From a virus (taxonomy: Duplodnaviria > Heunggongvirae > Uroviricota > Caudoviricetes), in the IMG/VR virus record IMGVR_UViG_3300018477_000015, positions 1 through 11,577 of that record: a stretch of 11,577 nucleotides of DNA. One strand, 5' to 3'. The translations under genes were made by a program, and so were the position numbers. Numbering within the stretch: the stretch's first letter is position 1; each line of letters opens with the position of its first letter. Under the pieces are notes generated by a model, which was not told where the DNA came from, ran no database searches, and saw only the letters and a program-made list of their open reading frames with translations. Positions 650-11,577 of this stretch are shown in pieces.

Positions 650-1204
650 ATGCTTATTGGCTATGTACGTGTGTCAACAAATGACCAGAACACAGATCTA
701 CAACGTAATGCGCTGAACTGTGCAGGATGCGAGCTTATTTTTGAAGACAAGATAAGCGGTACAAAGTCCGAAAGGCCGGGACTGAAAAAACTGCTCAGGA
801 CATTATCGGCAGGTGACACGCTGGTGGTCTGGAAACTGGACCGGCTGGGGCGCAGTATGCGGCATCTTGTCGTGCTGGTGGAGGAGTTGCGCGAACGAGG
901 CATCAACTTTCGTAGTCTGACTGATTCAATTGATACCAGCACACCGATGGGGCGTTTTTTCTTTCATGTGATGGGGGCCCTGGCTGAAATGGAACGAGAA
1001 CTGATTGTTGAACGAACAAAAGCTGGACTGGAAGCTGCTCGCGCACAGGGACGAATTGGTGGACGTCGTCCCAAACTTACACCAGAACAATGGGCGCAGG
1101 CCGGGCGACTAATTGCATCAGGAGTTCCTCGCCAGAAGGTGGCGATCATTTATGATGTTGGCGTATCGACTTTGTATAAGAAGTTTCCGGTCGGAGATAA
1201 ATGA
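650..1204 (+). CDS. pin: serine recombinase, DNA invertase (Pin/Hin/Gin/Cin family)
   Basis: Translation from ATG 650 begins MLIGYVRVSTNDQNTDLQRNAL... with the catalytic-serine motif and C-terminal HTH (GRIGGRRPKLT...STLYKK), near-identical in pattern to e14 Pin as I recall it. AGGGAGA sits 6 nt upstream of ATG 650. The upstream ATG at 614 would add a non-conserved extension. Confidence 0.92.
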   Translation: MLIGYVRVSTNDQNTDLQRNALNCAGCELIFEDKISGTKSERPGLKKLLRTLSAGDTLVVWKLDRLGRSMRHLVVLVEELRERGINFRSLTDSIDTSTPMGRFFFHVMGALAEMERELIVERTKAGLEAARAQGRIGGRRPKLTPEQWAQAGRLIASGVPRQKVAIIYDVGVSTLYKKFPVGDK

Positions 1205-1284
1205 AACCGTAGCACGTCGTATGCAAGAACGTGCCACGGCTGGCTGATAAGCTTGTAAAAATATTGAACAGGGAGTGGAGCATT

Positions 1285-1932
1285 CTATGAAGCTAATTTG
1301 TTTAATTTCATTTGTAGTGACTTTACTTCTTGGTCGATAATGTCGAATCCCTTATTGACAGCATCTCTTAGCTCTGCATCAATATTTTTTATCCCTTGAG
1401 CATAATCTACCATTACATTTATTTTTGCATCATGTAATCTCTTATACATGGTTTTATCTTTGTTATTGTCTGCCATGCCAATAAGGATTTTTTCATAATC
1501 CTCAATGAGTTTGTTGTTTCCTTTAAATGATTGTATTAATGAGCGTGAATATGTGTATATGTTAATTATTGAGTCTCTAGCAGAATCATTTAGTTTTGCA
1601 ATGACATTCGCATTTTTCTCATAGAATGTGAAATTATCATCCCCTACAGGGAATGTGAGAATCAACATTTGTCCCGGTTTTATATTATCAATGTGTGTTT
1701 TCATCCTTTTATTATATAAATTGATTAGGGTGAAAACTTCTCCCTTAACTCCTTTTAATACTGAAAGTTGTAATTCAAGGGATTCTCTTTCTGTCTCTAC
1801 TTTAGACAGCTTAGCTTGTTGGGTAACTCCTTTTAGGGTAAACCATCCGCCAATAAGAGTACCAACTAGAGCTGTGAGGGAGGAGGATAACCATCCAGGT
1901 ATGCTATTTAAAAGATTACTAAATTCACTCAT
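1285..1932 (-). CDS. hypothetical membrane-anchored protein (single N-terminal TM helix, then coiled-coil and globular region); AT-rich accessory gene
   Basis: 215-aa ORF. Residues about 10-32 (IPGWLSSSLTALVGTLIGGWFTL) are hydrophobic, followed by a charged heptad-like stretch. Low GC compared with flanking phage genes. No family recognised. Confidence 0.6.
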   Translation of the reverse strand: MSEFSNLLNSIPGWLSSSLTALVGTLIGGWFTLKGVTQQAKLSKVETERESLELQLSVLKGVKGEVFTLINLYNKRMKTHIDNIKPGQMLILTFPVGDDNFTFYEKNANVIAKLNDSARDSIINIYTYSRSLIQSFKGNNKLIEDYEKILIGMADNNKDKTMYKRLHDAKINVMVDYAQGIKNIDAELRDAVNKGFDIIDQEVKSLQMKLNKLAS

Positions 1933-1990
1933 TATAAGTACTCGCTAATATTGAACGATATATATATCAAATTATTATAAAACTCGTCAG

Positions 1991-2269
1991 CTACTGGAGA
2001 AGGCTACCTGAACTTCGATCTATTCCTGCATCCATATAGTTGATGGTCTTCTGGAGCTCTTCGATTAGGGCAACAGCTTTTGCTCGAGAAATGCATATTA
2101 GTTGATCCGGAAATTCTTGTAAGGGCCAGTTTGGTATACAGGCCATGTTATCAGTGAAGGATGCAGACAAGTAAACTTCATTGGTAACCAGAGAATAGCT
2201 TACCTCAAAATTGGTGAGTTCCGGCAAACTGCTAACGTTTGACTCTTTTCTGCGCATAATATTATCCAT
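1991..2269 (-). CDS. hypothetical small protein; start uncertain (ATG at 2269 giving about 92 aa, or upstream ATG at 2419 giving 142 aa)
   Basis: Open frame in the AT-rich island. The N-terminal 50 residues of the long form are Cys/Trp-rich and contain the C9T6 tract, so the shorter form is favoured. No clear SD for either start. Confidence 0.35.
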   Translation of the reverse strand: MDNIMRRKESNVSSLPELTNFEVSYSLVTNEVYLSASFTDNMACIPNWPLQEFPDQLICISRAKAVALIEELQKTINYMDAGIDRSSGSLLQ

Positions 2270-2346
2270 GACTGTAATTATGTACAGGTGATGGTCTTCA
2301 ATTTCGAAGAGGGAGTCAAGGGGGAGTCTCAAATGAACCGTTATAG

Positions 2347-2361
2347 AAAAAAGGGGGGGGG
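2347..2361. repeat. homopolymeric tract A6G9 (C9T6 on the minus strand)
   Basis: Direct reading: aaaaaa at 2347-2352, ggggggggg at 2353-2361. Confidence 0.9.
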
Positions 2362-2409
2362 ATCTTTGTGTTGCTGAACTTATGCAAAATTTTTTTGCAC
2401 CATAAATCC

Positions 2410-2670
2410 AACAACACATTCAATAACACATTGCTGTATCACTATGAAAATAAATGTGTTTTTATTTGATTTCACACATATCACAATTAATACAGCGTTT
2501 AGTAATTAGTAAAGACATTTCAATGAATTACCGTTAAATCATTTTAAAATCAGTAAGTTGTATCGAGTTTGTATGCTTTACTGTCATTAACTTACTGTAT
2601 GTTGATCCAGTGTATTTAACCTTGATAAACTCAGTCCAGCAACACAAAACCGCAACACATTGCATTTTGT
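2410..2670. promoter_or_regulatory. AT-rich integrase-upstream region with repeated short motifs; candidate attP arm-site or int regulatory region
   Basis: AACACATT at 2413-2420, 2425-2432 and 2654-2661, with an inverted copy at 2453-2460. A 9-bp perfect inverted repeat CAGTAAGTT/AACTTACTG at 2551-2559 and 2589-2597. Repeated TTGTAT and TTACTGT motifs. Confidence 0.3.
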
Positions 2671-2732
2671 CCCGTAGAAAAGACTTGTATGTGTGTGCTT
2701 GTTTTCTGCGCCTACGCAGATAAGGATTGAGA

Positions 2733-4130
2733 ATGCCGCGCACTGTAACACATAATCCGGATAGCCCCAATAATGACGATGTTTTAGCCGCATCTGAAAA
2801 ATGGGACGCCTGTAAACCCCCCTATACCAGCGCACACATGAAAATCTGTGTTGCTGCCGCCAAAATCATCCTCGCTGCTTCCGGCGTGGCTCGCCGTTCC
2901 AAATACGAAAAAGAGAACTATCTCCGTATCGATTTCAGCAAAGCCGGTAAGGTTACATTTTACGCCGAGTTTCCAAAAAAGATGGGCCTCAAAGGTAAAA
3001 AGCTCGGCGAGTGGCCGGAGCTCGCTATTCAGCTGGCGCGCGAAAAAGCGCTAGGTATGGCTGACGGTGGCCTGCGTGCAGAGTCCGTACATGCAGCGCT
3101 GGAAATGTACCGGGATGACCTCAAAGCCAAAGTCGCCCGGCAGAAGCTGAGCCCGGACAGTTTCACAACCTACGGGGTGCGTATCGACCGGATTAAAGCA
3201 ACGTTCGGCGAGCGCGAGGTGTTCAGCGACGTAACATACAATCGGCTGGTGGAAGTGCTGGACGAGTGGATCGCTACTCGCTCGAACAATAACGCCCTGG
3301 AGTTGTTTGCCGAGCTCCGTCGGTTCTGGAAGTTCTGCGCACCTACTCTTTGCAACGGCCGCAATGTTGCCGCCAGTCTGCCAGATGATTATGTTTCCTC
3401 CCGCGTACAGAAACCTACCCCCACACGGCTTTTTACCGATATTGAATCAATCGCCCGACTCTGGCTCAATGTTGCTGCCTGCACCTCTGTACACCAGAAG
3501 AATGCTGTTCGCTTCATGATCATCACTGGTGTTCGTCCGATTAATGTCCATAACCTGCGCTGGGACTACGTTCACGAGGAGGCTGGTGAAATTGTTTATC
3601 CGGAAGGGGTTATCGGCATGCGAGGGGCTATGAAAACACAAAAGGCTTTCCGCCTGCCGATAACCCCTGAGATCCGGCGGATTATCGACGAGCAGAAAGC
3701 CTGGCGTGATTCAGTTCCTGAGTGCAACAGGGATTATGTATTTTTGCAGCCACGTGATCCAATGCAGCCATTTTCAAAACGATCACTAGATAAGCTGGTG
3801 AAAACATACAGCCCGGACGGGGCTGTAAAAGGAATAAAACATGATGGGACTGTTAAAGGGAAAGACGGTGCATTTAATACGATGTGCCGTAAATTCCTTA
3901 AGAGCAATGTTATTGCCTTGATGAAGGAAAGAGGCTATTCCCGCTCAGACCGAAGGGAAATCAGCCTCCTTTGCCTTCACCACTCCAGCAAGTCAGATGA
4001 CCCGATGGCAGAACATTACGACTTTTCTGATGAGATTTTACAGGAAGAGATTGCGTTGAAGCGCGAAGCTTTCGAGGCTCACGAGCGGAGCATACTTGCG
4101 CAGGTGGCATTGCTACGGCGGCGAGGTTAA
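2733..4130 (+). CDS. int: tyrosine-type site-specific integrase (P4-like, with N-terminal arm-binding-type domain)
   Basis: 465 aa from ATG 2733, with AAGGA 6 nt upstream; the track's 2727 start is a TTG. The N-terminus (YLRIDFSKAGKVTFYAEF...LGEWPELAIQLAREKA) fits the P4-int arm-binding pattern. The catalytic-domain landmarks are TGVRPINV (Arg), HDGTVKG and CLHHSS...AEHY (His/Tyr region). Confidence 0.85.
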   Translation: MPRTVTHNPDSPNNDDVLAASEKWDACKPPYTSAHMKICVAAAKIILAASGVARRSKYEKENYLRIDFSKAGKVTFYAEFPKKMGLKGKKLGEWPELAIQLAREKALGMADGGLRAESVHAALEMYRDDLKAKVARQKLSPDSFTTYGVRIDRIKATFGEREVFSDVTYNRLVEVLDEWIATRSNNNALELFAELRRFWKFCAPTLCNGRNVAASLPDDYVSSRVQKPTPTRLFTDIESIARLWLNVAACTSVHQKNAVRFMIITGVRPINVHNLRWDYVHEEAGEIVYPEGVIGMRGAMKTQKAFRLPITPEIRRIIDEQKAWRDSVPECNRDYVFLQPRDPMQPFSKRSLDKLVKTYSPDGAVKGIKHDGTVKGKDGAFNTMCRKFLKSNVIALMKERGYSRSDRREISLLCLHHSSKSDDPMAEHYDFSDEILQEEIALKREAFEAHERSILAQVALLRRRG

Positions 4131-4327
4131 TACTGGCTGCGACATTTTTGAATAAAAGCGTCGATATTTCGGCGCTCATAACGAACTACTTTTGCACTGA
4201 AACGAATTGGTGCCAGGATAGCCCGATGACGATGCTTAATATTCCACTCACATAGCGTTTTCTGTGTAATACCTAACTTTTGGCATACTTCATCCGGGGT
4301 GAGTAAATCGTCGGGTTTCTCGCTCAT
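4127..4327 (-). CDS. AlpA/excisionase-family small HTH DNA-binding protein (candidate recombination directionality factor)
   Basis: 66 aa. LLTPDEVCQKLGITQKTLCEWNIK...ILAPIRFSAKVVRYERRNIDAFI fits the AlpA/Xis winged-helix pattern. Its ATG overlaps the helicase stop (ATGA at 4324-4327) and its stop overlaps the int stop convergently. Confidence 0.65.
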   Translation of the reverse strand: MSEKPDDLLTPDEVCQKLGITQKTLCEWNIKHRHRAILAPIRFSAKVVRYERRNIDAFIQKCRSQY

Positions 4328-5718
4328 GCTATACCTCTCTTTTTCATGGCATCGAGCAGGATGTCCTGCACTGTTCGTTTTGAGTTGCGCCGCTCCATCA
4401 CCATTTCATCCATAGTGTCGGCAGCAATAATGTGGTGAATAAATACCGGACGATTGTGTCCGGCCTGTATCTGCCTGGTGGGGCCGATACGTTCAATAAT
4501 TTGCTGATATTGCTCCAGGTCCCACCAGTGTGAGAAAAATACCAGTATATTTCCGCCGTCCTGCATGTTCAGGCCGTGGCCCGCGCTGGCTGGGTGTGCA
4601 AAGAGAACAGGAATCTTTCCGGAATTCCAGTCGCGCAGTGTCTGTGGATCCTGGTCGAGGTGACGACCGCGAGGGAATGCTTTAAGCAAGCGTTCAAGAT
4701 CGTGTTTCCAGTGATAAGCAACCAGCACAGGTGCGCCAGCTGCTTCGGTCAGTATGCTGTCCAGCGCCTGTAGTTTGGTGTCATGCAGTTCTGACCAACT
4801 TCCGGTGTCATCTGTGTATACTGCGCCGCTGGCGATTTGCAGACACTTCAGTGTCTTTGCCGCGGCGTTCGGTGCTTCGATGCCTTCGCCATTCAGCTCG
4901 AGGAACATTTCCTTTTCCATTTCACGATACTGCTGACGGGCCTTCGGCGGCATATCCACGCGGATTACGTTATGGATGGGGTCTTTGATATCGAACCAGT
5001 CGGCCGCATCCAGCGAGAGGGTTACATCGGCTAACGCTCGCTGTATTTCACCCTGTGAGTGAGCAAAAGGCTCCAGTTTGGTCCAGCTCTGCCCCGGAAA
5101 CTGTATCGAGTTGAACCAGCGTGAGGTAAACGCGCCGTAAGTGCGCCCGAGACGTTGCCCCTGGTCCACAAACCACGATTGTCCCCACAAATCTACCAGG
5201 CCGTTCGGTGCTGGCGTACCGGTGAGATTTATCCAGCGCCGGACATACTTATGCGCCACTTTGCCCAGCGCCGCCGCGCGCTTACCACCACCGCGCAGCC
5301 GGAAGGATTTTAGCCGGGTGCTTTCATCTGGAATGACAGTACCGAACGGCCATCGTTCTCCCAATTCTTCAACCAGCCAGACAAGGTTATCGTAGTTGAT
5401 GGTGAACACGCTTGCGTTGCTGTTCGTCAGCGCCATAGAGCGCGCTTTGGCATTACCAATAATTGGCTGCACCTCGATATTGCGCAAATGTCCCCACTTC
5501 AGTGCTTCATCCGGCCATGTGCTGGCAGCCACGCGCAGCGGCGCGAGGACCAGTGCGGGGCATGTTTCTGCCCCTGCCATAAAGAGATCTTCCAGCGCAG
5601 TGAGCGTTGCCACGGTTTTACCCATTCCCATCCCCGCCCAGATGTTGCCGCGCAGGGTTTCGGTTTCGTGGTTGATAATGAGATCTTGGTAGGGGCGAGG
5701 TATATATTTTGGGGGCAT
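4324..5718 (-). CDS. SNF2-family ATP-dependent helicase (phage replication or recombination module)
   Basis: 464 aa with RPYQ, Walker A AGMGMGKT, DExx box IPDESTRL, motif III LTGTPAPN and a C-terminal GLNMQ...ERIGPTRQIQAG block resembling SNF2 motifs V/VI. AGGAG sits 9 nt upstream of ATG 5718. Confidence 0.85.
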   Translation of the reverse strand: MPPKYIPRPYQDLIINHETETLRGNIWAGMGMGKTVATLTALEDLFMAGAETCPALVLAPLRVAASTWPDEALKWGHLRNIEVQPIIGNAKARSMALTNSNASVFTINYDNLVWLVEELGERWPFGTVIPDESTRLKSFRLRGGGKRAAALGKVAHKYVRRWINLTGTPAPNGLVDLWGQSWFVDQGQRLGRTYGAFTSRWFNSIQFPGQSWTKLEPFAHSQGEIQRALADVTLSLDAADWFDIKDPIHNVIRVDMPPKARQQYREMEKEMFLELNGEGIEAPNAAAKTLKCLQIASGAVYTDDTGSWSELHDTKLQALDSILTEAAGAPVLVAYHWKHDLERLLKAFPRGRHLDQDPQTLRDWNSGKIPVLFAHPASAGHGLNMQDGGNILVFFSHWWDLEQYQQIIERIGPTRQIQAGHNRPVFIHHIIAADTMDEMVMERRNSKRTVQDILLDAMKKRGIA

Positions 5719-5732
5719 ATAATATGGCTCCT

Positions 5733-5768
5733 AAACAACAAAAGGCCAATTTAGGCCTTTTGTTGTTT
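5733..5768. other. perfect 15-bp inverted repeat with 6-nt loop (possible attenuator, weak terminator or processing hairpin)
   Basis: AAACAACAAAAGGCC-AATTTA-GGCCTTTTGTTGTTT. It lies between the stop of the 305-aa gene (5781) and the helicase RBS, and is U-rich on either strand. Confidence 0.5.
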
Positions 5769-5780
5769 TAAAAATGTTAT

Positions 5781-6698
5781 TTATAATAGTGCTGTTACTA
5801 TTGCATCTTTAAAAATATTTTCTTCTTCATTTATTAAAGGTGATGACAGATGAATAATTACTTCTTTTCCTGTCAATACTATTTGCTCGACTTGAAATCC
5901 TGCGTTGTGTAGTCTTTGGCGTAACTTTTCTAGTGCTGATTTTGATATACTAAATCCTTCACTCCTTATAGTATAACTGGCAACTCCATTTTTAATAATA
6001 TCTACAGAGTTGTCAATTTCCTGCTGCGAGTAATTTTTCGGTGAGTCGAAAAATCTGGATTTTGTCGTTGCTGTTGCCCTAAGAGATATCAATAATGATT
6101 TGATATCTTTAATCTCAGATGCCAGATACTCAGTTTCTGATACTTCTTTCTGGTCTAGTTGTGCAACTTTGAAAGTGCCAAAATGTTTGAGGAATGTTGT
6201 GTATTCAGGATCAGTTACTGACTTTAAATATGTTTCTTTTATCTTGCTCGCAAGTCTTTCTTTGAATAAATTGATTGATTGGTATCTTAAATCCGAAGGG
6301 TACTCTAAATGTTCAATTGATGAAATGTCAAAGCTATAAGGAGTGCGCTCGTCCTTAATAATTACGGTCGGTTTGTCAAATGCGAGACGCATTCCTAATT
6401 CAAACATTACATTAGCGTTTCGAGCACTTATATCGCAAACAACTATGGGGTTTTCATAAAGATTTTGAACAATTCGTTTTTGTATTACTGCAACATCATC
6501 ATCTGAACTTACCAAATTTGCCTTGAATCCGGCATCATTTGATGCTTCACAAATAATGTCATGAACATTTCTCCAATGTCCAGTGGGATAACCTTCTATG
6601 TCCGCAATTGGCATAATAATGCCGCATATATGAGGTGGCATATTTTTGTTGTCTTTTACATCATCTTGGTTTATTTCTTTCGTTTGTTGCTTAGCCAT
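5781..6698 (-). CDS. hypothetical protein with N-terminal TIR-like / nucleoside 2-deoxyribosyltransferase-like (Rossmannoid) domain and uncharacterised C-terminal domain; AT-rich insertion
   Basis: 305 aa. N-terminal region has ICGIIMPIA, then DDDVAVIQKRIVQNLYENPIVVCDISARNANVMFELGMRLAFDKPTVIIKDE and EYPSDLRY. The FE(L)G acidic motif after a buried strand is typical of TIR-like (PF10137-type) and NDT-like folds as I recall them. GC content is clearly lower than in the flanking helicase and VRR-NUC genes. Confidence 0.5.
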   Translation of the reverse strand: MAKQQTKEINQDDVKDNKNMPPHICGIIMPIADIEGYPTGHWRNVHDIICEASNDAGFKANLVSSDDDVAVIQKRIVQNLYENPIVVCDISARNANVMFELGMRLAFDKPTVIIKDERTPYSFDISSIEHLEYPSDLRYQSINLFKERLASKIKETYLKSVTDPEYTTFLKHFGTFKVAQLDQKEVSETEYLASEIKDIKSLLISLRATATTKSRFFDSPKNYSQQEIDNSVDIIKNGVASYTIRSEGFSISKSALEKLRQRLHNAGFQVEQIVLTGKEVIIHLSSPLINEEENIFKDAIVTALL

Positions 6699-6713
6699 AG
6701 CTTACACAGACTC

Positions 6714-6998
6714 CTATTGTAATTTTTTGCCTAATATACATGAAAGCTCCTTACTATCCAGTACTACCACGGTAAAGCCCAGTTTTCGCAGACGTTCATG
6801 CTCGCGCAACTGATCAGGTCGTGGTGGTTTGCCTGGTGCTTTGCATTCGACAAAGACGATGCGACCGCCGGGTAGCAGAACAATGCGATCTGGTACCGAG
6901 CGGAGACCGGGAGATACGAACTTAAAAGCAACCCCGCCAGCCTTTTTTACTTCAGCGACGAGGTGCTTTTCGATTAGGTTTTCACGTTCATAGGCCAT
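6714..6998 (-). CDS. VRR-NUC domain nuclease (PD-(D/E)xK family)
   Basis: 94 aa. GLRSVPDRIVLLPGGRIVFVECKAPGKPPRPDQ contains the D...E-x-K signature in the size and arrangement typical of VRR-NUC, a usual partner of phage SNF2 helicases. Confidence 0.8.
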   Translation of the reverse strand: MAYERENLIEKHLVAEVKKAGGVAFKFVSPGLRSVPDRIVLLPGGRIVFVECKAPGKPPRPDQLREHERLRKLGFTVVVLDSKELSCILGKKLQ

Positions 6999-7192
6999 TA
7001 GCTTTCGCCTTCCTGCTTTTTGCGTTTCTTCATGCAGATAGCGCAGTTCTCAGGATGGTCATGCCATTCGTCAATCCTGATACCTGTGAACATCCATTTT
7101 CCGCATAGTGATATGGCTTCCCCCGAATTAAAGAAATGTGCTTTTTTCGACAGGGCGGGGAACCCCCAACCTTTATTATCGATATTAGACAT
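6998..7192 (-). CDS. small putative zinc-binding protein (64 aa), translationally coupled to the VRR-NUC gene
   Basis: Strong SD (AAGGAGG, 6 nt before ATG 7192). Its stop overlaps the VRR-NUC start (TAATG at 6996-7000). Contains a C-x13-H-x-H-x4-C-x2-C motif (SLCGKW...EWHDHPENCAIC). Confidence 0.55.
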   Translation of the reverse strand: MSNIDNKGWGFPALSKKAHFFNSGEAISLCGKWMFTGIRIDEWHDHPENCAICMKKRKKQEGES

Positions 7193-7370
7193 CGTCCACC
7201 TCCTTACGCTTTTCGCGCATGTTCTGCATCAGACAAAAATCAAACCGACGTTCGCTTTGGCCCAGACCTGCATCGCCCGGTCGTACCCGCTGGACTGTTC
7301 AAGGCGCAAAGCCTCCCGCGCAGTCCGGTAATAAAGCGGACTGTCCCGGTATTTAAATGACATAGGGTTT

Positions 7371-7403
7371 TTATTCCCAAATAAAAAACCCCGCAATGCA
7401 GGG
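7371..7403 (-). terminator. rho-independent terminator downstream of the 253-aa gene (minus-strand sense)
   Basis: Minus-strand RNA forms CCCUGC-AUU-GCGGGG (6-bp stem with one G-U pair) followed by UUUUUUAUUU. It lies about 24 nt after the stop at 7428. Confidence 0.5.
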
Positions 7404-7427
7404 TTGTAATCAACAATAAGGGGGTAA

Positions 7428-8189
7428 TTACGAGGAAGCGTTAGCTATTTGAGCTTGTGTAAATTCGAAACCAGAATTTTGTAACCGTTGCACTAGACGA
7501 GGAACTGTTTCACGTACATGGTCGTTGAAATTCAGATACAAAATCCCGTTAGCATCAGAAGGCTGTTCTAGGTGCTGTTTCTGAAGGATTGCTACATTGC
7601 TGCGCCCTAAGGACGAAAGAAGCATACCCATCTCGAGTACAACGTTCTGTCTTGCGCGGGGTTGGATTTCTGCTTCACCGGCGCGCTTTGAGTATCCCAT
7701 ATCATCAGGTGTCAAAAGAACAATCCCGAAACGGGTAGCAGTTTGTCCTTGCCCAATTTCACGTTCAAGCTCTTCAATAATGGTGAGTCCAGTCCCTCCC
7801 GTATTCTGCAAAATGAAATGGTCTGGTAATCCAAGTTTATGAAGGATTAGCTCAAGTTGTTCCTTTGCAGTATGGTCATGGCCGTGAACAATGAATATCT
7901 TTTTGGGAAGCTCAGATGGCTGTTCTACGGCTAGTGGTGTTGCCGTGGGGGGCGTTCCTAAATGGGACATTATTGCAGTTTCAACATTGGGACGTTCTTG
8001 AGGGTTACCTTGAAACTGAATGGTCCGGGTGGTGTAAAGGTTAACAATTACGCCATTCGTTAAACGATAGCAGTCATAAGTCTCACGCTGTTCGTGGGAA
8101 AAATTGGTGAACCCACACTCCCTCAAAAAGTCAGGAAAAGATTCTCTCGGGTATGGATAGGTGATCGGCATTTCAGTTAGTTCCTGCAT
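7428..8189 (-). CDS. TIR-like domain protein (C-terminal TIR-like/NDT-like Rossmannoid domain, uncharacterised N-terminal domain of about 95 aa)
   Basis: 253 aa. C-terminal half has KIFIVHGHD, then FGIVLLTPDDMG...PRARQNVVLEMGMLLSSLGRSNVAILQK and QPSDANGILYLNF, the same motif order as the 305-aa protein and matching my recollection of the PF10137-type TIR-like family. AGGA about 10 nt upstream of ATG 8189. Followed by its own terminator. Confidence 0.55.
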   Translation of the reverse strand: MQELTEMPITYPYPRESFPDFLRECGFTNFSHEQRETYDCYRLTNGVIVNLYTTRTIQFQGNPQERPNVETAIMSHLGTPPTATPLAVEQPSELPKKIFIVHGHDHTAKEQLELILHKLGLPDHFILQNTGGTGLTIIEELEREIGQGQTATRFGIVLLTPDDMGYSKRAGEAEIQPRARQNVVLEMGMLLSSLGRSNVAILQKQHLEQPSDANGILYLNFNDHVRETVPRLVQRLQNSGFEFTQAQIANASS

Positions 8190-8253
8190 AAGTATTGTTC
8201 CTTTAATTTACTCGAATTCAGCATGTCGCCATAGCTCGATAAGGTGAGTTATA

Positions 8254-10350
8254 TCAATCTTTTTTGTAGTGGTACGCCTCAAAGCCGCCAGCGTTCAGCG
8301 GAATATCGGGTGCCCATTCGGGGTTAGTGGAGAGAAGCGCGGAAAGCGCTTTATCGTTGAAATCTTCTGTGTCTGGTGCTTCGGTGATCACCTCGTCGTG
8401 TACCGTTAGCACAATGCTGTAACCGGCACCCTCGATCAGCGGCATGTTTCTGGCCAGAACGTCGCGGGCGGCCGCCTGGGTGACGTTCTCCACCAGCTTT
8501 CCGCCGTAGGTTTTGAGTCGTTGCCATTTACGCGAATAAGAGTTAACACCCATGTAGGTGATATTCCCTTGTTCGATAACCGGAGACGGGTAGCATACAG
8601 CGCGTCCGGATGGTAGCTGTATGCGCAGCCACGCGCCATCACGTCGGATTTTAAGATAGCCGCAATACAATGTTTTTTGCGGTATGGCGATTGCTGTGCG
8701 GACAGTGCGCTCCAGCTCGTACCAGAAATCGCAGGTCGCCGGGTGCGCCCTGCGCCACAGGCGCTTGAGCGAGTCACATGCGATGAATACACGCTCGGAA
8801 AGGCCAAAGGTCGACTTACGTTTAACCGATTCGTCGTACCAGCTTTTCGCCTCGCGGATAACATCGCGGGGAATGTTTGGCAGTGCGGCGTTCGCCAGCT
8901 CGTCGAGATCGAGACCGTAAACCAGAGCAAAAGTGATGAAAGCCGATACACCACCTCCATAACCCAGACCGAGTTCCATGACTTTACCGATCTGACGCAT
9001 GTGTTTATCAACATCATCTGGTGCAATATCGAAAGCTTTTGCATACGCCAGTTTATATAAGTCCGGACCCGTTCCAGCGTCATACTCTCTGAATGCATTC
9101 AGTTTCCATTCTTCTCCCGCCAGCCATGCCAGCATACGGCCTTCAATGTTTGACAAGTCACTTACCACCAGTTTTTTGCCTGTTGGCGCGATAATGCAGC
9201 CACGTAACGCTGAACTGGTTAGTTCCATGATATTGTCAAACAGCAGGTCTGCACATCCGGCTTTCAGTGCTTCGATGCCTTCGTCTATTTGTTCCTGTTT
9301 TAGTGAAGGGCGGGGAAGGTTCTGGGGCTGGAATAGCCGTCCGGCCCAACGACCGGTACGTGACGCCCCGCAGAACTGTAGCGTACCGCGTAAGCGCCCG
9401 TCGTGGCTTACGCCTTTCATCAGTGCCTTGTATTTACTGGTGCTGGTAGTACTGGCTTGCAGGCGGATAGCCAGCAGTTCTTTCACGGCAGATGATAAAT
9501 CGGGGTCGGCCATACGACGTTCCAGGGTACTGCGTTGCATGTCTGGTAGCTCCACACCGTAGGATTCAACGATGTGCTTAATCAACGCGTCCCGTTGTGT
9601 GGCTGCCTGCACTTCGCCATCAGTCATTTCCTGTGTACGCTTTGCCAGGCGCTTTTGCTCCTGGTCTACCGCTTCGATCGCAGCGCGCGCGAGTTGCATG
9701 TCCATGCAGACGCCCCGGTCGTTGATCTGCTGATCACGATGCCAGAGCGCCAGCTCTGTCCCCTGATAATTCCACTTCGGCAGACGTTTATAGACTTCGC
9801 GCATTGCTTCGATATCCAGTCCGGCGTAAGCAACAAAGCGCCGCCATTCTTCCGGATGGGTTTTACTGGTGGCCCGACGCAGTTTGCTGTTTTTCGGATG
9901 TGGCTTACAGAACAGCTGGATCAGCGCTTTACCTTCTTTGTCCTTCGCTTTGTCTTGCGGGACGCCTAGTACTTCGCAGAGTTCCCCCAGAGACCCCGGG
10001 AGACCGTGCGCCAGCGCCTGCACCATCGTGTCGCGCCAACGTTCGACTGGCGGTGCCAGTCGCGGCATTGCATAACGCAGAACGGTGCGGTCGAAGTGAG
10101 AGTTATGGAAATAAAGCAGGGTTTCAGGGTCTGCGATTGCTTCGTATAAGCCGTGTGGAATACCACCACCGGCAGTGATATCCCACACGTTTACTGGCCC
10201 GTCGTTGATAGCCCATGCGAAAAGCATCACTTCAACGCCTTCGGCATACGCATGGGTACCGTTCGTAATAGGGATTTCGCAATAGGTTTCCAGGTCGCCC
10301 CAGAGAATACTTTGATGTTGTTTATTTGAGGGGACTATATTATTTTTCAT
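8254..10350 (-). CDS. family A DNA polymerase with N-terminal 3'-5' exonuclease domain (phage-type PolA)
   Basis: 698 aa. Exo motif LWGDLETY, polymerase motif [21 protein letters not shown], motif [17 protein letters not shown], motif C LTVHDEV. Confidence 0.9.
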
Positions 10351-10384
10351 ATGGGCAAACTAGCTAATAAAGTTGAGGAAAAAA

Positions 10385-10588
10385 ATGTCTGAATCTAAGT
10401 TCAAACCTGGAGACCGCGTACAACATCTTTCTGGTGGGCCTGTTCTTGTGGTTGTTAGCACAGGATATATTCCTGCAACAGCTTTTAATGGCGACTTCAT
10501 TCGCGTAACTTGTGAATTTTGGGATGAATCTAAAAAAGCTTTCGTAAAACAGGATTTTGTTGAAACTTCTCTTGAAGATTACGAATAA
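10385..10588 (+). CDS. DUF2158 (YodC-like) small protein
   Basis: About 67 aa from ATG 10385, with GAGGA 5 nt upstream; the track's 10373 start is a TTG. KPGDRVQHLSGGPVLVV...CEFWDESKKAFVKQDFVETSL fits the GD.V.L.SGGP...C.WFD...K..F pattern of the DUF2158 family. It lies opposite in orientation to the surrounding replication genes. Confidence 0.65.
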   Translation: MSESKFKPGDRVQHLSGGPVLVVVSTGYIPATAFNGDFIRVTCEFWDESKKAFVKQDFVETSLEDYE

Positions 10589-10604
10589 CTCATAACACAA
10601 TCCT

Positions 10605-10628
10605 CAAAGCGCCCCTAAGGGCGCTTTG
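10605..10628. terminator. bidirectional hairpin terminator between convergent genes
   Basis: Perfect 10-bp stem CAAAGCGCCC / GGGCGCTTTG with CTAA loop, followed by GCGTTT on the plus strand. It sits 17 nt after the DUF2158 stop and 4 nt after the DUF2815 stop. Confidence 0.55.
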
Positions 10629-10632
10629 GCGT

Positions 10633-11181
10633 TTAAATCAGTGCTTCAGCATCAGCACCTTCGCTGATATCGTCGAAATCGTCAGCGCTTGCCACTCCGC
10701 CGCCAGCGAATGCATCGCCGTCTCGCAGGAACTGGACTCCGCCGAGTGAGGCATTAATGCGTTTACCGAAATTATTGTCCTGTGCCCAGATATCGATAAC
10801 GGCGTTTACATAGCACCCTGCATAGGGACGTCCATCAGCCTGAATTAGTGGCGAACGATCGCGATCAAGAACAGCTGGGCGCGCTTTGTTAGCAGCATTC
10901 AGGAAGAAATTACCGGGGAAGCCTTCATACTCTGCTTTTTCATCACCATCATGCAGGCACAGATTGAGTTTTTTCTCCAGTTGGTTATAAATGGGCTCCC
11001 ACTTCTCTCCCCATTTTTCCTTCGCTACCTGCTTCATAGCTTTACGGATTTCTTCCAGTTGTGGGTGTTTGGGAGACATTAAAAATACTGCGGAGAAACG
11101 CGGATCGCCTTCGCCGTTTACAGTTTTAGCTTCAAACAGAGACGGGAAGGCCAGACGAACATTGTTCAGCTTCAGTTTCAT
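10633..11181 (-). CDS. DUF2815-family phage protein (ssDNA-binding-like), with acidic C-terminal tail
   Basis: 182 aa beginning MKLKLNNVRLAF, the N-terminal signature I associate with DUF2815 proteins found next to phage family A polymerases. AAGGAAA SD 8 nt upstream. C-terminus is DDFDDISEGADAEALI. Confidence 0.65.
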   Translation of the reverse strand: MKLKLNNVRLAFPSLFEAKTVNGEGDPRFSAVFLMSPKHPQLEEIRKAMKQVAKEKWGEKWEPIYNQLEKKLNLCLHDGDEKAEYEGFPGNFFLNAANKARPAVLDRDRSPLIQADGRPYAGCYVNAVIDIWAQDNNFGKRINASLGGVQFLRDGDAFAGGGVASADDFDDISEGADAEALI

Positions 11182-11196
11182 GGGTATTTCCTTAAA

Positions 11197-11577
11197 TCAG
11201 ATGAGGTCTGCGGTTAGCGTATCGTCGGATACGTCGTCGAAATCATTTACAGGGTTGATATTGAGTGCGGGGCGTGGGTCTGACTCGGGAACGACGGTTG
11301 GTTTACCATCAGCTCGTGTTATCAGTGCCTCGACTTTTGACCAACGGCGCGGACTGGCCTTTTTGATAAGTTTTTCGGCTTTTGTGGGACTAATAAGTTT
11401 AAAGTCGAATACTTCTTCAGTTTTGTACCTGAACTGGTCCTTCAGAAGTGCGCGAGCTGCCTCTTCATCACTCCAGGCCCGGTTACCTTGTTTTCCTGTT
11501 ACCAGTTTAAACCCCGGTACCGGATGTCCGGCATTGAGTTCATTGTGAACCCGGTCCCGTACTGCCTTTAGCCAGGA
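11197..11577 (-). CDS. phage replication-module protein, C-terminal 126-aa fragment (5' end outside window); possibly the DUF2800-type nuclease that usually precedes DUF2815
   Basis: Minus-strand frame is open from the window edge to TGA at 11197-11199 and ends ...NDFDDVSDDTLTADLI. The stop lies 15 nt upstream of the DUF2815 start. It is not in the ORF track because there is no Met in the window. The family assignment is a guess from gene order. Confidence 0.45.
   Translation of the reverse strand, partial: SWLKAVRDRVHNELNAGHPVPGFKLVTGKQGNRAWSDEEAARALLKDQFRYKTEEVFDFKLISPTKAEKLIKKASPRRWSKVEALITRADGKPTVVPESDPRPALNINPVNDFDDVSDDTLTADLI

Follow-up and report, generated by a model that had tools for sequence, protein, structure and literature searches.

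Results

The locus between pin and int

The window, by which we mean the whole 11,577-nt stretch of DNA that was analysed, is a temperate E. coli myophage of the SEN34/e14-like type in its excised, circular state. The features considered here lie at and between its pin and int genes (Table 1). The same phage also carries a PDC-S35 TIR gene, as recognised by PADLOC.

Table 1. Features of the pin-int region, with positions numbered from the first letter of the window
Feature	Position	Strand	Description
pin DNA invertase	650..1204	+	184 aa from MLIGYV; borders the cargo slot on its left; Pfam Resolvase (1.8e-51), HTH_7
Terminator-like hairpin	1205..1241	-	14-bp stem, then U-rich run; dG -22.5 kcal/mol, z -3.2
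Cargo insertion (moron)	1249..1975 (about)	-	~730 bp, 33% GC; from alignments, GC figures and the empty slot in Citrobacter
215-aa CDS	1285..1932	-	ORF; predicted N-terminal glycine-zipper TM helix (about residues 15-33) and cytoplasmic helical bundle
Intergenic spacer	1933..1990	-	58 nt, AT-rich; about 43 nt cargo-derived; possible extended -10 TGATATATA
88-aa CDS	1991..2257	-	phrog_17793 (E 9e-45, no assigned function); terminal backbone gene, outside the cargo
A6G9 homopolymer	2347..2361	+	Upstream of the 88-aa gene; length varies among near-identical prophages
Phage-borne yfhL 5'-end mimic	2462..2518	-	MSLLITKRCINCDMCEIK*; rebuilds yfhL at attL
att identity core	2470..2487	.	TTCACACATATCACAATT; within yfhL codons 10-16; three-way attP/attR/attL alignment
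Tyrosine integrase int	2727..4130	+	Pfam Phage_integrase (4e-7)

The first-pass annotation had read positions 1285-2419 as a single AT-rich accessory cassette between pin and int, made up of a membrane-anchored 215-aa protein and a small upstream ORF. The 215-aa gene does lie between these genes and, at 33.0% GC, is the AT-richest 648-nt stretch in the window, with equally low values in 1.2% of sliding windows. The region is not one cassette, however, but three parts: the ~730-bp cargo, a backbone gene of 43% GC and an AT-rich attP arm. The left boundary of the cargo is approximate, and the right boundary is the point at which homology with vB_EcoM-611R5 resumes (~1975). Many further phages and prophages of E. 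coli share the 44 bp directly 3' of pin at 100% identity. The terminator-like hairpin is placed after the 215-aa gene, convergent with pin. An Rfam scan of positions 1100-2800 returned a sub-threshold CssrB match at the 3' end of pin and nothing else.

A cargo slot beside the invertase gene

Alignment with related elements identifies a cargo slot directly after pin, the tail-fibre invertase gene, with contents that differ among relatives. The slot is empty in Citrobacter prophages (L040-L043), where the 88-aa gene abuts pin, and is occupied by an uncharacterised 281-aa protein in vB_EcoM-611R5 and in strains C11 and NMBU_W05E18; comparison of this protein with the 215-aa protein by hhalign revealed no relationship between the two. 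An O-antigen acyltransferase (Acyl_transf_3) is the occupant in SEN34 and Salmonella, and a further state comprises a hexapeptide acetyltransferase plus the 215-aa protein. In e14, whose PinE is 97% identical to the Pin of the window, the gene order is pinE-mcrA-attR and the occupant is McrA, which bears out the earlier placement of the insertion at the position held by mcrA in that element. One backbone position is therefore found with unrelated genes or none across related elements, and the base composition of the cargo departs from that of the backbone, at 33.0% against 50-51% GC in the flanks (50.3%, rounded to 50%, for pin and 51.4% for int). Together with the empty Citrobacter site and the alternative occupants, this contrast upholds the proposal that the drop in GC marks a horizontally acquired insertion at a hotspot.

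The 88-aa gene accompanies every slot state of its relatives, the empty one included. On this distribution it is a conserved terminal backbone gene of the SEN34/e14-like prophage family and not a partner of the cargo, and its former inclusion in the cassette had to be abandoned. The true start is indicated by more than 40 homologue clusters of 87-88 aa and by a RefSeq annotation of 267 nt. A longer, 142-aa ORF (1991-2419) was rejected as an over-extension given these homologue lengths, the RefSeq annotation and the presence inside the extension of a homopolymer of variable length, which is A6G9 in the window, A5G8 in L001 and A5G10 in L002, and is interrupted in other lineages. The predicted fold of the 88-aa protein is beta-beta-beta-alpha and COMM domain-like.

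The 215-aa protein and its family

The first-pass annotation recognised no family for either product. This holds for the 215-aa protein, which has no Pfam or PADLOC match and no significant NCBIfam or PHROG match, but not for the small ORF, which belongs to a PHROG (Table 1). Searches with the 215-aa protein gathered 216 close homologues and a remote, unnamed family of at least 669 clusters at 50% identity, distributed across Enterobacterales. When 59 of these remote relatives were compared with family models, the matches were scattered, each to one or two members and with E > 1e-4, other than phrog_33426 (no assigned function), which matches 4 of the 59 (best E 2e-5); PADLOC recognised none of them. 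A profile search of genome contigs with the close alignment yielded only seven loci, and a profile search of a word-indexed database with the remote alignment returned mostly close homologues and added little. The best hit of a sequence-profile search of the PDB (hmmsearch) was a designed binder at E 0.04. By tblastn the 215-aa protein is absent from all 50,697 sequenced phage genomes, and a 28%-identical paralogue likewise found no match in the same set. Among complete E. coli genomes about 1.5% carry the gene, with ETEC H10407 and STEC O103 and O45 strains as examples; a study of it (WP_001288820) was not found in the literature.

The protein had been described as an N-terminal TM helix followed by a coiled-coil and a globular C-terminal region. 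The single TM helix is retained in our analysis, whereas the rest of the protein is predicted as a single helical bundle (AF2 model, pLDDT 83, with low pLDDT at the N-terminus). In the window protein the TM segment is weakly to moderately hydrophobic (Kyte-Doolittle maximum 1.35), but the segment is conserved and clearly transmembrane among relatives, with a single N-terminal TM helix in 117 of 140 full-length family members. Flanking K/R counts are 0.32 on the N side of this helix against 3.08 on the C side, and the excess is on the C-terminal side in 114 of 125 members. Since this bias favours the C-terminal side, the bundle is placed in the cytoplasm and the predicted topology is N-out/C-in. 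The product would, on this model, consist of a short periplasmic N-terminus, one TM helix and a cytoplasmic helical bundle of ~180 residues. A signal peptide or lipoprotein was considered and rejected, as the n-region has no positive charge and the protein has no cysteine.

The family alignment reveals a pattern of strong local conservation. The TM helix bears a conserved small-xxx-small (glycine-zipper) face, with G24 and G29 near-invariant; E65 and F101 are invariant, and conservation at Y73, Y126, N139, N140 and Y177 is 90% or more, with a pairwise identity of about 25%. A conserved loop, FPVGDDNFTFYE, spans residues 94-105 within the helical bundle. The ~200-aa family members carry no output domain, and no enzymatic or nucleic-acid-targeting domain was found by Pfam in the 215-aa protein itself.

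Genomic contexts of the family

The genes for homologues are 33-37% GC regardless of host, across host GC contents of 40-60%, and are found on a wide range of elements. A lambdoid prophage of Providencia has its homologue just after the genes for a cI-like repressor and an HSDR_N protein, and others lie near int in Klebsiella and Erwinia satellite-like elements, beside CcdAB in a Dickeya ICE, beside HigBA in Enterobacter and in an integrase island of K. grimontii, while ~110-kb phage-plasmid-like replicons hold a 31%-identical paralogue. When 190 neighbours drawn from 15 contexts were compared all against all by BLAST, no partner gene recurred, and in at least 14 further contexts the family is present while the 88-aa gene is absent and no other neighbour recurs. 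The gene thus travels alone, on prophages, satellite-like elements, phage-plasmids, an ICE and small islands. The neighbours in the contexts examined are pin, an att junction, cI, int or toxin-antitoxin genes, and never an endolysin or spanin gene.

PADLOC analysis of 20 selected large neighbours recognised only PDC-S18, at 2.3 kb from the homologue in L033, and an RT-like protein encoded close to the homologue in L031, so the evidence for defence that can be drawn from context is modest. In addition, a TIR/ThsB-like gene and DUF5677 adjoin one distant family member. In this small sample, a defence gene recognised by PADLOC, or a candidate one, lies within 3.5 kb in about 3 of 14 contexts.

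Integration site and expression

The att alignment places the integration target of the phage at the 5' end of yfhL, a ferredoxin gene, with two prophage-junction matches that overlap at 2471-2508. In the integrated state, int and the cargo are at opposite ends of the prophage. The left junction has the order yfhL / int / SNF2, and at the right end the cargo shares the orientation of yfhH and comes straight after the native yfhH-yfhL promoter region, which integration displaces. On integration the phage restores yfhL with a 5' end of its own, and the displaced host promoter would read into the cargo.

A promoter scan called no sigma-70 promoter on the minus strand upstream of the 88-aa or the 215-aa gene and none in the spacer between them, and there is no terminator-like site on the minus strand before the hairpin that follows the 215-aa gene. 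Because the cargo is co-oriented downstream of the yfhH-yfhL promoters and this hairpin comes after the 215-aa gene, transcription in the prophage state is probable, and both genes are probably transcribed in the lysogen from host promoters. AT-rich genes of enterobacteria are commonly silenced by H-NS. The E. coli copy also lacks a GTTAAC-containing upstream element found with most homologues, and so it might be poorly expressed.

Discussion

The structural and genomic claims made above, namely that the cargo is an insertion, that it lies at a hotspot and that the 88-aa and 215-aa genes are not a pair, are ones in which we have high confidence. The analysis also shows the anatomy of the locus, the solitary mobility and size of the family, and its predicted topology and fold. 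The defence role discussed below, together with its mechanism and the route of expression, is what we infer from them. Our preferred reading, held tentatively and at a little less than an even chance, is that the 215-aa protein is a stand-alone inner-membrane determinant of phage exclusion or abortive infection. Such a role is plausible because the gene occupies a swappable slot that holds mcrA in e14. Of the possible mechanisms we prefer abortive infection, in which the cytoplasmic bundle would sense some cue of infection or a protein of the phage, after which oligomerisation of the glycine-zipper helices would permeabilise or depolarise the membrane; alternatively, the protein may block DNA entry and so act in superinfection exclusion. 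The case from context for such a role is made stronger by the hotspot and its alternative occupants, the solitary and mobile AT-rich gene, the defence genes near some homologues and the conserved features of the protein. Against a defence role we count the fact that a recognised defence gene is nearby in only a minority of the ~15 contexts, itself a small sample, and that no homology links the 215-aa protein to any defence protein. The absence of the gene from the 50,697 phage genomes, the weak hydrophobicity of the protein's own TM segment with low pLDDT at the N-terminus, the lack of a called minus-strand promoter and of the GTTAAC-containing element, and possible H-NS silencing also weigh against it. 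No evidence points towards an anti-defence role. A wider proposal, that the protein founds a large family (at least 669 clusters) of single-gene anti-phage determinants that spread alone among mobile elements and defence islets, would kill or shield the cell through membrane pores formed upon infection and would be switched on, here, through a captured yfhL promoter, is in our view less likely than not.

Comparison with known systems gives some context to this reading. The McrA of e14, a cryptic prophage of E. coli K-12, is the closest in position, being the product of a lone accessory gene that was acquired separately from the backbone and is located in the same slot, immediately downstream of the near-identical invertase gene, at a related tail-fibre/pin prophage end by an att junction. 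McrA is, however, a soluble type IV HNH restriction enzyme encoded on the plus strand, whereas the 215-aa protein is membrane-anchored, has no nuclease domain and is encoded on the opposite strand; e14 also differs in its integrase and att site (icd) and has no 88-aa gene. RexAB and SieB of lambda, like other prophage exclusion genes expressed with the repressor, are accessory functions of the lysogen; by acting at or via the inner membrane they abort or exclude superinfection. The Providencia homologue sits in the position equivalent to rexAB, downstream of a cI-like repressor, but hhalign probabilities against the 215-aa protein are below 1% for both SieB (0.5%) and RexA (0.3%), and RexB has four TM helices and needs RexA, where the 215-aa protein has one helix and is solitary. 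Proteins of the lactococcal Sie2009 type and gp15 of HK97 are small prophage morons with one N-terminal TM helix, encoded near int or the repressor or among tail genes, which block DNA entry. Compared by description, they differ in that their C-terminal part is generally regarded as lying outside the cytoplasm, the 215-aa family being predicted C-in and occurring also on ICEs and chromosomal islets.

The mode of action that we propose, with TM helices that oligomerise and depolarise the membrane upon activation, is akin to that of PycTM in Pycsar, Cap14 and Cap15 in CBASS and effectors of the RexB type. These effectors need a partner cyclase or sensor gene, whereas the 215-aa family has no recurrent partner and no PADLOC match. 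Four-helix bundles serve as sensor domains in chemoreceptors. The Tsr/Tar 4HB_MCP and DUF3829 bundles are at most 12% identical to the 215-aa protein and give no Pfam HMM match, and helical bundles match promiscuously. The chemoreceptor domain is, moreover, periplasmic, lies between two TM helices and is joined to signalling modules, unlike the predicted cytoplasmic bundle studied here, which comes after one helix only and lacks an output domain.

Other explanations need to be weighed against a role in phage exclusion. The gene could serve lysogenic conversion or host fitness in a manner unrelated to phages, for example in envelope physiology (stress tolerance, membrane remodelling or colonisation) or as a membrane scaffold, and we consider this unlikely though deserving of attention. 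Morons at prophage ends that are transcribed by read-through from the host are classic conversion genes, an O-antigen acyltransferase also occupies the slot, the protein lacks any enzymatic or nucleic-acid-targeting domain and several contexts have no defence genes nearby. Yet O-antigen acetylation is itself commonly a means of phage exclusion, and the same solitary gene is found on very different mobile elements and in very different hosts, always as AT-rich foreign DNA, a distribution that fits a conflict gene better than it does a niche-specific conversion factor. It is rather improbable that the protein is instead a membrane toxin, part of an addiction (stabilisation) module or a lysis protein (holin or antiholin) that serves the mobile element rather than host defence. 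A protein of ~215 aa with one N-terminal TM helix resembles class III holins such as T of T4 in overall architecture, a glycine-zipper helix suggests pore formation and a toxin-antitoxin pair (HigBA or CcdAB) is adjacent in two contexts; when this was examined with Pfam, however, no holin or toxin family was matched, and no cognate antitoxin gene recurs. Nor is the gene ever in a lysis cassette, its locations being prophage ends, sites beside cI or int, an ICE and chromosomal islets, and the predicted N-out/C-in topology leaves the bulk of the protein in the cytoplasm, whereas the large domain of holin T is said to be periplasmic.

We judge it very improbable that the 88-aa and 215-aa genes work together as a two-component system. 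In the window, as in about 80 complete genomes of E. coli, the genes are neighbours in the same orientation, 58 nt apart and not separated by a terminator, and they are probably co-transcribed. However, the 88-aa gene also lies beside the empty slot and beside unrelated cargo, the 215-aa family is without it in every non-E. coli context, the two genes differ in composition (43% against 33% GC) and the homology breakpoint at ~1975 falls between them. The suggestion that the pair might be found as a conserved unit in other genomes meets the same difficulty, each gene occurring without the other, and the two-gene reading is largely refuted by the co-occurrence data.

The locus represents a natural experiment, in which the slot of one backbone is found empty or filled by one of at least four different cargoes, McrA in e14 among them, and it is useful for studying the exchange of defence cargo at the pin-att junction. 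The design of the integration site offers, in addition, a testable route to lysogen-specific expression of cargo. If there is no phage phenotype, the 215-aa gene would be one more uncharacterised moron. If the family does exclude phages, it would represent a widespread and compact (about 650 bp) single-gene membrane defence that is missed by current defence-finding tools.

A single cargo gene at a prophage hotspot

The 215-aa gene lies precisely where the first-pass annotation had placed it, and within the window no 648-nt stretch is richer in AT. That annotation had gone on to read the AT-rich block 1285-2419 as one cassette of two genes, but GC content differs by region (see table) and the block therefore comprises three distinct things. 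Reading the small ORF as 142 aa over-extends it: more than 40 clusters of homologues have lengths of 87-88 aa, and the RefSeq annotation covers 267 nt (WP_001253101.1). The supposed extension contains an A6G9 homopolymer (2347-2361), approximately 95-105 nt upstream of the 88-aa gene, whose length varies (G8, G9 or G10) among E. coli prophages of ~99% identity and which is interrupted in other lineages; this tract could be phase-variable or could be sequencing noise.

Features of the window in gene order, from ORF listing and domain scans, with one gene from related loci
Feature	Coordinates	Strand	GC	Position
Tail-fibre tip and assembly genes				first in order
pin invertase	650-1204	+	50.3%	
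215-aa ORF	1285-1932	-	33.0%	
Small ORF (88-aa gene)	1991-2257	-	43.1%	between 215-aa ORF and AT-rich non-coding stretch
AT-rich non-coding stretch				between small ORF and integrase
attP arm			34.5%	
Tyrosine integrase (int)	2727-4130	+	51.4%	
Excisionase-like ORF				after integrase
SNF2 helicase				after excisionase-like ORF
AT-rich 305-aa ORF	5781-6698	-	30-36%	between SNF2 helicase and VRR-NUC
VRR-NUC nuclease				after 305-aa ORF
TIR protein, 253 aa	7428-8189	-		between VRR-NUC and PolA
Family A DNA polymerase (PolA)				last in order
281-aa gene, locus L003	3869-4714	-		
281-aa gene, loci L045 and L046	2869-3714			

Comparison with relatives shows that the slot between the 88-aa gene and pin or the tail-fibre genes is occupied by different genes or by none. 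It is empty in Citrobacter freundii prophages. In vB_EcoM-611R5, E. coli C11 and NMBU_W05E18 it holds a 281-aa protein, and pin is truncated; SEN34 and Salmonella prophages carry an Acyl_transf_3 O-antigen acyltransferase there, along with small ORFs; and strain 96_1414B has both a hexapeptide acetyltransferase and the 215-aa gene. In e14 the occupant is McrA, and the PinE upstream of it shares 97% identity with the window's Pin. The 281-aa protein, which has no Pfam match and is unrelated to the 215-aa family, is another uncharacterised cargo candidate. Homology to e14 stops no more than ~20 nt past the pin stop codon and DNA homology to 611R5 picks up again at ~1975, just past the 88-aa stop codon, so the cargo spans ~1249-1975 and contains a single gene. 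The 88-aa gene (phrog_17793, E 9e-45) is confined to Escherichia, Salmonella and Citrobacter (61 clusters), is always the final gene ahead of the host junction, and is present whether the slot is empty or filled by unrelated genes. The proposed insertion at a hotspot thus stands, whilst the proposed two-gene unit is refuted; the slot is a verified cargo hotspot, where other elements carry a restriction enzyme or acyltransferases that modify receptors.

The phage's early region (4324-11577) shares 99.5% identity with the induced E. coli prophages vB_EcoM-606R2, -611R5 and -689R2, and its tail-fibre/pin end is similar to both Salmonella phage SEN34 (Brunovirus) and cryptic prophage e14. The TIR gene, set inside the early replication operon, encodes a protein matching Pfam CAP12-PCTIR_TIR (3e-31) and the PADLOC candidate system PDC-S35 (E 1e-108), and is likely a phage-borne defence or counter-defence gene. 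A second AT-rich island corresponds to the 305-aa gene, probably another moron, whose product has weak TIR-like matches (PADLOC TIR effector 1e-6; Pfam 0.011; phrog_3634 1e-18). A sub-threshold Rfam match to the Shigella sRNA CssrB (1182-1238, plus strand; 31.7 bits, the gathering score being 76) overlaps the pin 3' end and terminator hairpin, and is probably without meaning.

Integration and probable expression

The right end of a prophage found in 80 of 5,426 complete E. coli genomes is 99% identical to window 1205-2508, in the order pinE, 215-aa gene (WP_001288820.1, "hypothetical protein"), junction and host yfhH. The opposite end of the same prophage, by host yfhL and the integrase, matches window 2471-2726; the window represents the excised form. 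When attP, attR and attL were aligned together, they shared a strict identity core, TTCACACATATCACAATT (2470-2487). This core falls in the ferredoxin gene yfhL, at codons 10-16, and the phage integrates within the 5' coding end of this gene. It carries its own mimic of that end (2462-2518, minus strand, ATG at 2518, product MSLLITKRCINCDMCEIK then stop) spanning the first 16 codons and the upstream region, so yfhL as rebuilt at attL takes its N-terminus and upstream region from the phage, the lysogen's YfhL starting MSLLITKR as against MALLITKK. The native yfhH-yfhL upstream region, a displaced promoter region, ends up at attR directed into the prophage and facing the cargo.

One strand of the lysogen carries yfhH, the residual yfhL 5' end and both the 88-aa and 215-aa genes, and no terminator-like site was predicted on it ahead of a hairpin at 1205-1241, just past the 215-aa stop codon (14-bp stem then a U-rich run; dG -22.5 kcal/mol, z -3.2). 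In the circular form, the phage's yfhL-mimic upstream region takes the equivalent position. The host or mimic yfhL promoter region would then transcribe both genes, which is the simplest inference; because a promoter scan called no sigma-70 promoter, we offer this read-through as a hypothesis.

A mobile family of membrane proteins

The 215-aa protein had no match in Pfam, NCBIfam, PHROGs, PADLOC or a PDB sequence search, nor by tblastn against 50,697 phage genomes. Its close homologues, all annotated "hypothetical" (60-75% identity, 215-223 aa), are spread throughout Enterobacterales, and searching 1.84 billion representative proteins with a profile returned 669 clusters at E < 1e-3, nearly all of 190-230 aa and sharing one layout. 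At ~25% pairwise identity, E65 and F101 are invariant, and conservation is 90% or higher at G24, Y73, Y126, N139, N140 and Y177. Small residues are maintained in the membrane segment at positions 20/21, 24/25 and 28/29 (G24 in 57 and G29 in 51 of 59 sequences), a pattern that may form a glycine-zipper-like face, typical of mutually packing helices. A single N-terminal hydrophobic helix is found in 117 of 140 full-length members, and K/R counts in its flanks are 0.32 for the N side against 3.08 for the C side (C side higher in 114 of 125), so the predicted topology is N-out/C-in with the bulk of the protein cytoplasmic. In the window protein, segment 15-33 has a Kyte-Doolittle maximum of just 1.35, and its membrane anchoring therefore rests partly on the family. 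In the AlphaFold2 model (pLDDT 83, pTM 0.71), a long helix leaves the membrane and extends to residue 82, followed by a conserved loop at 83-101, FPVGDDNFTFYE, and two more long helices (116-154 and 160-214), these elements making a modelled helical bundle.

Wherever it occurs, the family gene stands alone and is rich in AT (33-37% GC, its loci having 40-60%). In a Providencia lambdoid prophage it follows a same-strand cI-like repressor and HSDR_N protein, the location of rexAB in lambda. In Klebsiella pneumoniae and Erwinia typographi (loci L021-L025, L035) it lies near the integrase of elements that look like satellites, being small with their own Phage_cap_E capsid gene; the Klebsiella homologues are followed by a conserved 140-142-aa ORF. 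Other homologues are found on a Dickeya ICE beside ccdAB and IS110, in an Enterobacter chromosomal islet beside higBA, and in an integrase-bounded island of K. grimontii. A 31%-identical paralogue (L048, NC_032102.1 85699-86301), oriented against its neighbours, is carried on ~107-122-kb non-mobilisable IncFIB plasmids with phage genes from Enterobacter, Citrobacter and Salmonella, probably SSU5-like phage-plasmids. A 26%-identical relative adjoins a TIR/ThsB-like gene and DUF5677, PDC-S18 lies 2.3 kb from a homologue in one locus, and an RT-like gene occurs in another; all-against-all comparison of 190 neighbouring proteins revealed no recurring partner. Upstream of most homologues (L005, L011, L021, L023, L031, L032, L034, L035), mostly by ~77 nt (range ~54-79 nt), is a GTTAAC-centred palindrome, consensus AAAGTTAACTTT, which may be an operator or promoter element. 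The E. coli copy, which retains just ~43 nt of cargo-derived upstream sequence, is without it.

Candidate function

It is established that the 215-aa gene is solitary, highly mobile and compositionally foreign, and that it codes for a membrane protein; the same phage has at least one further candidate defence gene, the PDC-S35 TIR protein. Of the candidate functions, phage exclusion acting at the inner membrane is the best supported. Three rival readings are less consistent with this context: an envelope-conversion factor, a holin-like protein or membrane toxin, and a two-gene system with the 88-aa protein. Of the first-pass annotation, the observation is confirmed in part and the interpretation supported in part.

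As to how exclusion might operate, we favour abortive infection. The conserved bulk of the protein is predicted to lie in the cytoplasm and includes a conserved polar and aromatic constellation, and the membrane helix is strongly constrained. That constellation could bind a cue, and the constraint on the helix would fit with oligomerisation. The main alternative mechanism would be to block DNA entry. With its role so far a matter of inference, the 215-aa gene represents a new, uncharacterised family in a known kind of locus, the prophage moron/defence hotspot, and is a good and cheap candidate for phage challenge.
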